Source of the DNA: Escherichia phage phiYIO1-1
Reading direction: 5' to 3' (one strand)
Length of the DNA stretch: 40,520 nucleotides
Sequence record: PP079210
Shown: positions 10,271 to 10,450 of the stretch, piece by piece
Layout: every line of letters starts with the position of its first letter
How positions within the stretch are numbered: position 1 is the first letter of the stretch
Program-made: the position numbers and the translations under genes
Notes under the pieces: model-generated
Database searches by the model: none
What the model was told of the DNA's origin: nothing
The model's input: the letters and a program-made list of their open reading frames with translations, nothing else

Positions 10271-10450
10271 ATGGTTACAGTTATTCTAGTTCTAACGCTG
10301 ATCAGTGGTAGTGGTCAAACTATCAGCCAAGTACCTATAACAGCACCGACATTACAGGACGCATTCACAATATGTGACCAGTCAGGCTCAAAGTGGGCCG
10401 ATAAGTTTGGCGATGTCTCAAACGTTGCAGCAGGGTATGAGTGTATTTAA
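10271..10450 (+). CDS. Small hypothetical protein with N-terminal hydrophobic (signal/TM-like) segment
   Basis: 59-aa ORF (MVTVILVLTLISGSGQ...) not in the track; its RBS and start context TTAAGGAGTGACCAATG is identical to that of gene 4 at 10447-10463. Confidence 0.4.
   Translation: MVTVILVLTLISGSGQTISQVPITAPTLQDAFTICDQSGSKWADKFGDVSNVAAGYECI

Follow-up and report, generated by a model that had tools for sequence, protein, structure and literature searches.

In T4-type phages, PeSL cassettes consist of a variable small ORF located between two repeats that carry expression signals, and a close relative has a single copy of the repeat (Arbiol et al. 2010, PMC2839356; Comeau et al. 2014, PMC4122927). 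Gain and loss of these cassettes were proposed to occur via recombination between the repeats (PMC2839356; PMC4122927). The PeSL repeat is about 100 bp long, comprises a sigma-70 early promoter and a terminator stem-loop, and is dispersed in hyperplastic regions (PMC2839356; PMC4122927). By analogy, these cassettes are the closest described system to a slot in front of gene 4 of Escherichia phage phiYIO1-1. We analysed a DNA stretch of 40,520 nt from this phage (sequence record PP079210; the whole stretch is referred to as the window). Here too a small ORF of 59 aa (ORF59) lies between two copies of an expression signal, ORF-less relatives have a single copy, and any gene standing between the copies obtains its expression signals from the repeat. 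Unlike the PeSL repeat, the signal is a translation signal of 16-17 nt (SD, spacer and ATG, with stops in two frames), and it is present in two copies in one slot. Another genus shows a different repeat sequence at the corresponding borders, which points to target duplication and not to a dispersed mobile motif.

T7 readily deletes DNA between short direct repeats, leaving one copy. Such a precise loss matches the empty-slot genomes among the relatives of phiYIO1-1 exactly, but it explains loss only and accounts neither for the origin of the repeat nor for the diversity of the inserts. The morons of lambdoid phages resemble ORF59 in being extra, dispensable genes between genes that are adjacent in relatives, with a GC content slightly under that of the genome. 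However, morons bring along a promoter and terminator of their own, whereas the ORF59 insert is made up of the CDS and one motif copy. Promoter, hairpin and leader upstream of ORF59 are identical in ORF-less relatives; ORF59 would take over the resident promoter, leader and RBS, and gene 4 retains an identical copy of the RBS. HNH genes of the T7 gp3.8 type share with ORF59 the insertion point after the motif ATG and the patchy occurrence among close relatives, but ORF59 has no nuclease motif: no Pfam or PHROG match to HNH, GIY-YIG or LAGLIDADG nucleases was found, and there is no invariant His, Asn or Asp. Host-takeover proteins like T7 Gp2 are similar to the ORF59 product in size, in the predicted beta-beta-alpha-beta order and in the early/middle gene location. 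In a Foldseek search against the PDB nothing was significant for the ORF59 model, and Gp2 as best match (4lk0_M, E = 0.38, TM 0.37) serves as a lead only. In our literature search we found no direct earlier description of this border architecture and its recurrence or of RBS-bounded cassettes in T7-like phages. The slot nevertheless illustrates modular gene flux; we do not regard it as a system of a new kind. We consider it likely that ORF59 is a dispensable accessory gene, and that its cassette is gained, lost and exchanged at translation-start microhomology in the gene 4 slot. In a Kayfunavirus culture, spontaneous loss of a 397-bp gene was observed (PMC8861465).

The repeat TTAAGGAGTGACCAATG occurs exactly twice in the window, both times on the plus strand, at 10257-10273 and 10447-10463. 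The copies are 190 nt apart, in agreement with the initial annotation of this region, and exact search gave no third match. Even with two mismatches allowed, no further match was found in the 40.5-kb window, and two matches were reached in none of 100 dinucleotide shuffles. Since the bases bordering both copies differ (preceding A versus T, following G versus T), the identity ends after exactly 17 nt. ORF59 (10271-10450, plus strand) begins with the ATG of the left copy, and the 566-aa primase-helicase gene 4 (10461-12161, plus strand) begins with that of the right copy. The ORF positions thus confirm both start codons as they had been proposed; the gene 4 product is annotated as primase/helicase in relatives, and Pfam families are found on its homologs. 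The left copy consists of the SD TAAGGAG, the spacer TGACCA and the ATG. It serves ORF59 in the window, and in ORF-less relatives it is the sole copy and serves gene 4. The right copy provides the stop codon of ORF59 (TAA) as well as the SD and ATG of gene 4. Gene 4 is an essential gene, and it is the initiation region of this gene that was duplicated. The motif carries stop codons in two frames: TAA terminates ORF59, and TGA terminates an unrelated ORF that occupies the same slot in other phages (ORF58, see below).

Self-comparison of positions 10150-10520, a check that had been suggested for this region, revealed the 17-mer and otherwise only chance matches of 8-10 nt. Neither blastn nor tblastn detected a second copy or a paralog of the ORF59 body in the window. 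The heptamer TAAGGAG itself is found 11 times on the plus strand and once on the minus strand of the window, with 3.3 occurrences expected. Nine of the 11 copies on the coding strand stand before a start codon, and TAAGGAG is a dispersed SD heptamer in phage phiYIO1-1.

The window region is 96-99% identical to Kayfunavirus phages (K1F-like, T7 group), with vB_EcoP_F as closest relative (99.1%). ORF59 was found in 16 of 192 matching phage records, in all 16 cases with 100% amino acid identity, and GenBank already annotates it as a hypothetical protein. Most of the remaining records match in two pieces and have a span that is 190 nt shorter (711 nt versus 901 nt). About 90% of the close relatives, K1F included, are without ORF59; in the type phage K1F the slot is empty, with gp3.7 being followed by gene 4A 68 nt on. 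Alignment to ZCEC02 shows a clean 190-nt gap and one motif copy (CTAAGGAGTGACCAATG) that leads straight into gene 4. This alignment and the spans in the relatives define a presence/absence unit of 190 nt (10274-10463, plus strand) that comprises the ORF body and one motif copy. Because of the repeat, the exact position of this unit is ambiguous within 17 nt. In IMG/VR, a single motif copy is present in nearly all Kayfunavirus contigs, and a 16-mer scan of this database returned mostly such single-copy Kayfunavirus sites together with unrelated chance matches. The initial annotation had named absence of the ORF from close relatives, with no effect on gene 4 expression, as an argument against its reading. 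This absence is real, but since ORF59 is missing in most close relatives it is a dispensable accessory gene, and its absence is not evidence against being a gene. Several of the 16 ORF59-bearing phages were isolated on strains labelled K1, among them O18ac:K1:H7 (vB_EcoP_F) and K1 LU_100 (PhiNW-B1); UTI89 (host of Pipis) and ATCC 11775 (host of UFJF_EcSW4) are K1 strains as well. This host tendency may reflect phylogeny only.

ORF59 is not the only insert at this position. The slot at the gene 4 start is polymorphic: it is empty or contains ORF59, ORF58, HNH genes or a tRNA. In IMEP24 the slot carries the unrelated 58-aa ORF58 together with two copies of TAAGGAGTGACCAATG. ORF58 (MDGVPRHMRYYVGNTGKNRR…) is basic and helical-looking, and is located at 672-848 of the IMEP24 locus (L005) and at 1201-1377 of two further loci (L072 and L074). 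It has no BLASTP similarity to ORF59 and no match in PHROG. Metagenomic homologs of ORF58 show 74-100% identity. For diverged copies (P0024 and P0026, 78-79%) two contigs were examined, and in both the ORF is in the same slot with both motif copies kept. Judged from these sequences, ORF58 represents a real gene family. HNH endonuclease genes (phrog_4578, T7 gp3.8-like) begin right after the motif ATG in L010 and L059. In 216Ecol046PP (L006) an HNH gene (862-1227) follows ORF59, and three motif copies are present. The latter HNH gene leads into gene 4, whose 5′ end is diverged there and starts with GTG; this altered 5′ end suggests co-conversion by homing. A tRNA-Thr (CGT; 10055-10133) lies within the gene 4 SD of L050 (IMGVR_UViG_2974581996_000001), inserted between …GATTAAG and CTAAGGAGTGACCAATG.

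According to the initial annotation, a local duplication had seeded a new small gene. The first part of this view holds, as the initiation region of gene 4 was duplicated, limited to 17 nt. The second part does not hold, since ORF59 has phrog_6794 homologs and shows a dN/dS of 0.05. ORF59 matches phrog_6794 with E = 1.5e-23 (residues 1-59 versus profile positions 1-60 of 62), and the homologs from BA14, kpssk3 and Kp1 match the same profile. By tblastn, homologs with 38-71% identity were found in Przondovirus (kpssk3, Kp1 and many Klebsiella phages) and in Berlinvirus (BA14, 285P, FE44 and others). In both genera they follow gene 4.3 and precede gene 4.5 in a region downstream of gene 4, and they abut or overlap the stop codon of gene 4.3; the native ending of the homologs is TGCAT(T/C)TAA(A/T)(A)GGAG. 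Upstream of ORF59 the window contains a 71-aa gene of the gp4.3 family (K1F gp3.7; 9987-10202, plus strand; phrog_1950, E = 4e-25), and BA14 gp4.3, kpssk3_018 and the Kp1 homolog belong to the same phrog. The gap between this gene and ORF59 is 68 nt, and the two genes abut in BA14, kpssk3 and Kp1. All three genera have a gp4.3-family gene followed by ORF59, but they differ in where this pair stands: in Kayfunavirus the gp4.3-family gene precedes gene 4, whereas in Berlinvirus and Przondovirus it comes after gene 4, an inter-genus rearrangement of the class II region.

The value of 0.05 for dN/dS was obtained at a dS of 1.37 by comparing ORF59 to an allele with 88% amino acid identity in the same slot of an ENA contig (L061). 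The comparison to 216Ecol046PP revealed five synonymous and no non-synonymous changes. These substitution patterns indicate that ORF59 is under strong purifying selection. Existence of homologs in other genera together with this dN/dS implies that the gene came first, and that the 17-nt duplication would be a by-product of its insertion. A profile search of 1.84 billion representative proteins returned about six small-protein clusters only, without an annotated relative. In view of this exhaustive search the family is very small and occurs in T7-like enterobacterial phages only. Word-indexed protein searches with ORF59 gave no annotated relative and no functional clue, and the only Pfam match was a sub-threshold chance match (ASPP2-like RA, E = 0.14). 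The GC content of ORF59 is 45.1% versus 49.9% for the genome, which corresponds to the 14th percentile and is within the normal range. A 23-nt stretch of gene 3 (8958-8980, …GFKYADKF…) shows an 83% match to ORF59 (10385-10407, …GSKWADKF…). As a sign of relationship this match was rejected: its seed is 11 nt long, 2 kb should contain about 19 seeds of this kind, and it is attributed to chance.

The hydrophobic N-terminus of ORF59 had been described as signal-peptide-like, a view that our data do not support. None of the nine family members has a K or R within the first 12 residues, and the N-terminal apolar run comprises 11-14 aa. AlphaFold2 modelling of ORF59, based on an alignment of nine sequences, resulted in a pLDDT of 92.6 and a pTM of 0.72. 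The model consists of a strand (2-12), a second strand (15-25), a helix (28-47) and a third strand (53-58). The first block of 10 residues has a pLDDT of 95, and residues 2-12 form strand 1 of the three-stranded sheet. Conservation within the family is among the highest at the N-terminus: invariant positions in the nine-sequence alignment (40-98% identity) are T3, L6, L8-T9-L10, G15-Q16, C35, G39, W42 and C58. According to the model, the hydrophobic start is probably a beta strand and not a signal peptide. Exactly two Cys residues (C35 and C58 in ORF59) are present in all nine family members, including the distant P0009 and P0013-P0015. The best Kyte-Doolittle score over 19 aa is 1.0-1.6 in the family (maximum 1.61; the usual cut-off is 1.6). 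The invariant Cys pair and this borderline hydropathy, both read from the sequences, leave some room for an exported ORF59 product. The predicted structure makes it most likely that the product is a small cytoplasmic beta-beta-alpha-beta protein. Searching BFVD with the model returned uncharacterised small phage proteins only. It is tempting to speculate that the ORF59 product perhaps acts together with gp4.3 on a host factor.

ORF59 and gene 4 are preceded by a promoter-like sequence. The window has its own promoter family, CTAAACTATCACTATAGG(G/A)A, with 11 copies. The degenerate promoter-like sequence that had been noticed at 10198 is indeed one of these copies, located at 10199-10221 on the plus strand and slightly off consensus (CTAAACTATCACCTTAGGGATGG), with two mismatches in the core (CACCTTAGGG instead of CACTATAGGG). 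It is kept in every relative, with or without ORF59, and other lineages have the T3-type CACTCACTAAAGGGATG at the same position. The site is a putative promoter for the phage RNA polymerase, and by analogy with T7 leaders it would belong to the weak class II promoters and yield a 5′ stem-loop. From its predicted start GGGAUGGG… (about position 10216), the transcript folds into a 5′ hairpin of 10 bp, GGGAUGGGAC-CACUA-GUCCUGUCCC (10216-10240, plus strand), with a folding energy of -16.6 kcal/mol. Folds calculated from single sequences gave hairpins of 9-10 bp and -14 to -16.6 kcal/mol across lineages. The hairpin is kept in all lineages with differing inner stems (GGGAC/GUCC, GAGAC/GUCU, GACC/GGUU and GAGC/GCUU). 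RNAalifold on a MAFFT alignment of the leaders did not register covariation of the inner stem, as differences in loop length misaligned the stems. No Rfam family was found in 9900-10700 apart from one chance match (E = 0.77), a scan for sigma-70 promoters and terminators gave nothing above the shuffled expectation, and no terminator is present between ORF59 and gene 4.

Comparison of the window to the L061 allele reveals the mosaic history of the slot. Identity is 92.1% in the gp4.3-like gene (dS 0.21), 92.6% in the intergenic leader, 100% in the left motif, 79.8% in the ORF59 body (dS 1.37) and 99.1% in the first 319 nt of gene 4 (dS 0.05). From this segment-wise divergence we conclude that the cassette has a history separate from, and much older than, that of the backbone, with the switch at the motif. 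Whether the slot is occupied does not depend on the flanking haplotype: upstream of the slot, the empty ZCEC02 differs from the window by 1.8%, and the ORF59-bearing Vec13 and L061 differ by 4.4% and 8.4%, respectively. Gap-free distances of about 55-73% at the most divergent loci are alignment artefacts and were left out.

The borders of ORF59 in other genera can be compared to those in Kayfunavirus. In Przondovirus Kp1 the sequence …CTTAAGGAGTTCTTCTAAATG in front of ORF59 encodes the end of the gene 4.3 product (K-E-F-F-stop), and …ACTAAGGAGTTCTTCTAATG follows ORF59 in front of gene 4.5. The right-hand TAAGGAGTTCTTCTAA repeats this coding end of gene 4.3, and the ORF-less phage IME264 has a single copy, …CTTAAGGAGTTCTTCTAATG. 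The right copy in Kp1 thus derives from the gene 4.3 CDS, which indicates that the target was duplicated when ORF59 was inserted. A shared layout with unlike repeat sequences further speaks for the repeat being a local target copy and not a mobile motif. In Berlinvirus the ORF-less PYps49T reads CTGTAAGGAGTAAC, and phages with ORF59 read CTGTAATGG…ATCTAATAGGAGTAAC, with only TAA(T) being repeated. At the borders of the ORF59 indel in Berlinvirus and in kpssk3-type Przondovirus no more than 3-4 nt (TAA(T)/TAAA) are involved, and a long duplication of an initiation region is therefore no general rule. Common to all contexts are a right junction with stop plus SD, TAA(N)GGAG, and a left junction (TA)ATG, as seen in a handful of cases with biased sampling.

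A second region of the window shows the same architecture as the ORF59 slot. This cassette (15028-15196, plus strand) contains a 52-aa ORF (15032-15190, MAKTYSEQEVKDLMRSAWWCGHEESRYSPNLSGQCSRDIREILKEHNEEGED) between gene 5 and gene 5.5, and ACTAATGGCTA, an 11-nt stop/start repeat, is located at 15028 and 15186. In CR44b and many relatives the 52-aa ORF is missing, exactly 158 nt less are present, and one copy of ACTAATGGCTA is found.

How could a CDS enter this position and leave gene 4 with a second copy of its start signal? We suggest that the 17-nt repeat represents the SD, spacer and ATG of gene 4, which would have been duplicated when the ORF59 CDS entered by short-homology (illegitimate or copy-choice) recombination. 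In a copy-choice event or an illegitimate recombination between three molecules, the recipient would be left at the ATG of gene 4, and the donor CDS would be copied from its ATG through its TAA-GGAG end. Re-entry into the recipient would take place at its TAAGGAG, 9 nt upstream of the exit, so that SD, spacer and ATG are doubled. The TAAGGAG of the right junction would then be the native stop-plus-SD ending of the cassette and the SD of gene 4 at once. Selection would keep only those products in which the essential gene 4 retains a working start signal. ORF59 and gene 4 would be translated from identical start signals under the same promoter and 5′ hairpin, and the ORF59 stop within the gene 4 SD may allow translational coupling. 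The direct repeats of 17 nt could subsequently permit precise deletion, re-gain and allele swapping between co-infecting phages. Re-insertion might follow a Campbell-type route, proceed through a circle, or result from unequal exchange between co-infecting genomes. Recombination between the direct repeats would thereby explain the patchy distribution of ORF59. HNH-induced breaks at the gene 4 start are a possible contributor. In Kayfunavirus the direction could also be the reverse, with an old two-copy state and an empty state that originates by deletion, as the ORF59 alleles differ by a dS of 1.37.

A scenario without any insertion extends this last idea. The order gp4.3-like gene, ORF59, gene 4 would be ancestral in Kayfunavirus, and the empty state would arise only by repeat-mediated deletion, possibly repeatedly, and spread by recombination. 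The presence of two ORF59 alleles with a dS of 1.37 in one slot is compatible with this scenario, and so are the gp4.3 to ORF59 order common to two further genera and the readiness of T7 to delete between short direct repeats. However, it leaves unexplained why two identical 17-mers exist that include the non-SD spacer, and it does not fit the unrelated ORF58 and the tRNA at the same site. The loss of a 397-bp gene from a cultured Kayfunavirus is in line with deletion (PMC8861465), but the right copy in Kp1, a duplicated piece of gene 4.3, indicates that insertion with duplication occurs for this cassette. Moreover, repeat-mediated loss is also part of the insertion by short-homology recombination that we favour, and both explanations overlap in this respect. 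We regard a history of deletion only as unlikely. Very little speaks for the view that a local duplication of the gene 4 start created a signal-peptide gene de novo from non-coding or duplicated DNA. The 17-nt duplication itself and the hydrophobic N-terminus would be in agreement with it, but full-length homologs exist in other genera at a different genomic position. These homologs outside of Kayfunavirus refute a de novo origin by duplication. A dN/dS of 0.05 and the confident globular AlphaFold2 model are not expected for such a gene, its body is unlike gene 4 or anything else in the window, and ORF-less relatives have no non-coding DNA at the site that could have given rise to it. We therefore give this origin practically no credence.

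The gene 4 start could also be a homing hot spot, where a gp3.8-type HNH enzyme would cleave HNH-less genomes and error-prone repair would capture foreign CDSs by microhomology. The phrog_4578 genes that start exactly at the motif ATG (L010, L059), the HNH gene behind ORF59 in L006 with the additional replacement of the gene 4 5′ end, and the four kinds of insert at one 17-nt site would be explained in this way. The slot in the window is without an HNH gene, though, and the 4.3/4.5 case of Kp1 and the gene 5/5.5 case are not all located beside HNH genes. Surviving insertions could also accumulate at this site through nothing more than selection for keeping gene 4 translated, and homing as the main cause appears improbable to us. 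A transposable element with target-site duplication was also considered and rejected: terminal inverted repeats are lacking, and the 190-nt insert encodes ORF59 alone.

Insertion of the ORF59 cassette by short homology might be a special case of a general, undescribed gene flux in T7-like phages, an idea that we put forward with considerable reservation. CDS-precise cassettes would dock at TAAGGAG and (TA)ATG microhomology and often duplicate the RBS of the recipient, so that the newcomer and the essential downstream gene both stay translated. The duplicate would then constitute a portable recombination box, and the gene 4 start would be a safe-harbour slot that is perhaps HNH-sensitised. The ORF59 slot illustrates how compact lytic genomes acquire and lose small accessory genes while their essential genes stay undisturbed, and the borders of the cassette are translation signals, not promoters or terminators. 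The positions directly upstream of gene 4 and after gene 5 are naturally tolerated insertion sites. The gene 4 site takes at least four payloads in nature, which is useful for the engineering of K1F-like therapeutic phages. The phrog_6794 family, which is tiny, strongly conserved and travels with gp4.3, is a candidate for a host-interaction or anti-defence factor. Our analysis also corrects a likely risk of mis-annotation, namely that the ORF59 product is called secreted.

Two other repeats were observed in the window. A 33-nt tandem duplication (12748-12813, 91% identical) is located within an HNH-like gene of 144 aa (12424-12858) and repeats the peptide GEKYGVGHRTI. Near the left genome end (222-336) tandem 14-nt repeats (CCTACACCTACAGT) are present, which are probably part of the terminal repeat or of a concatemer-junction region.
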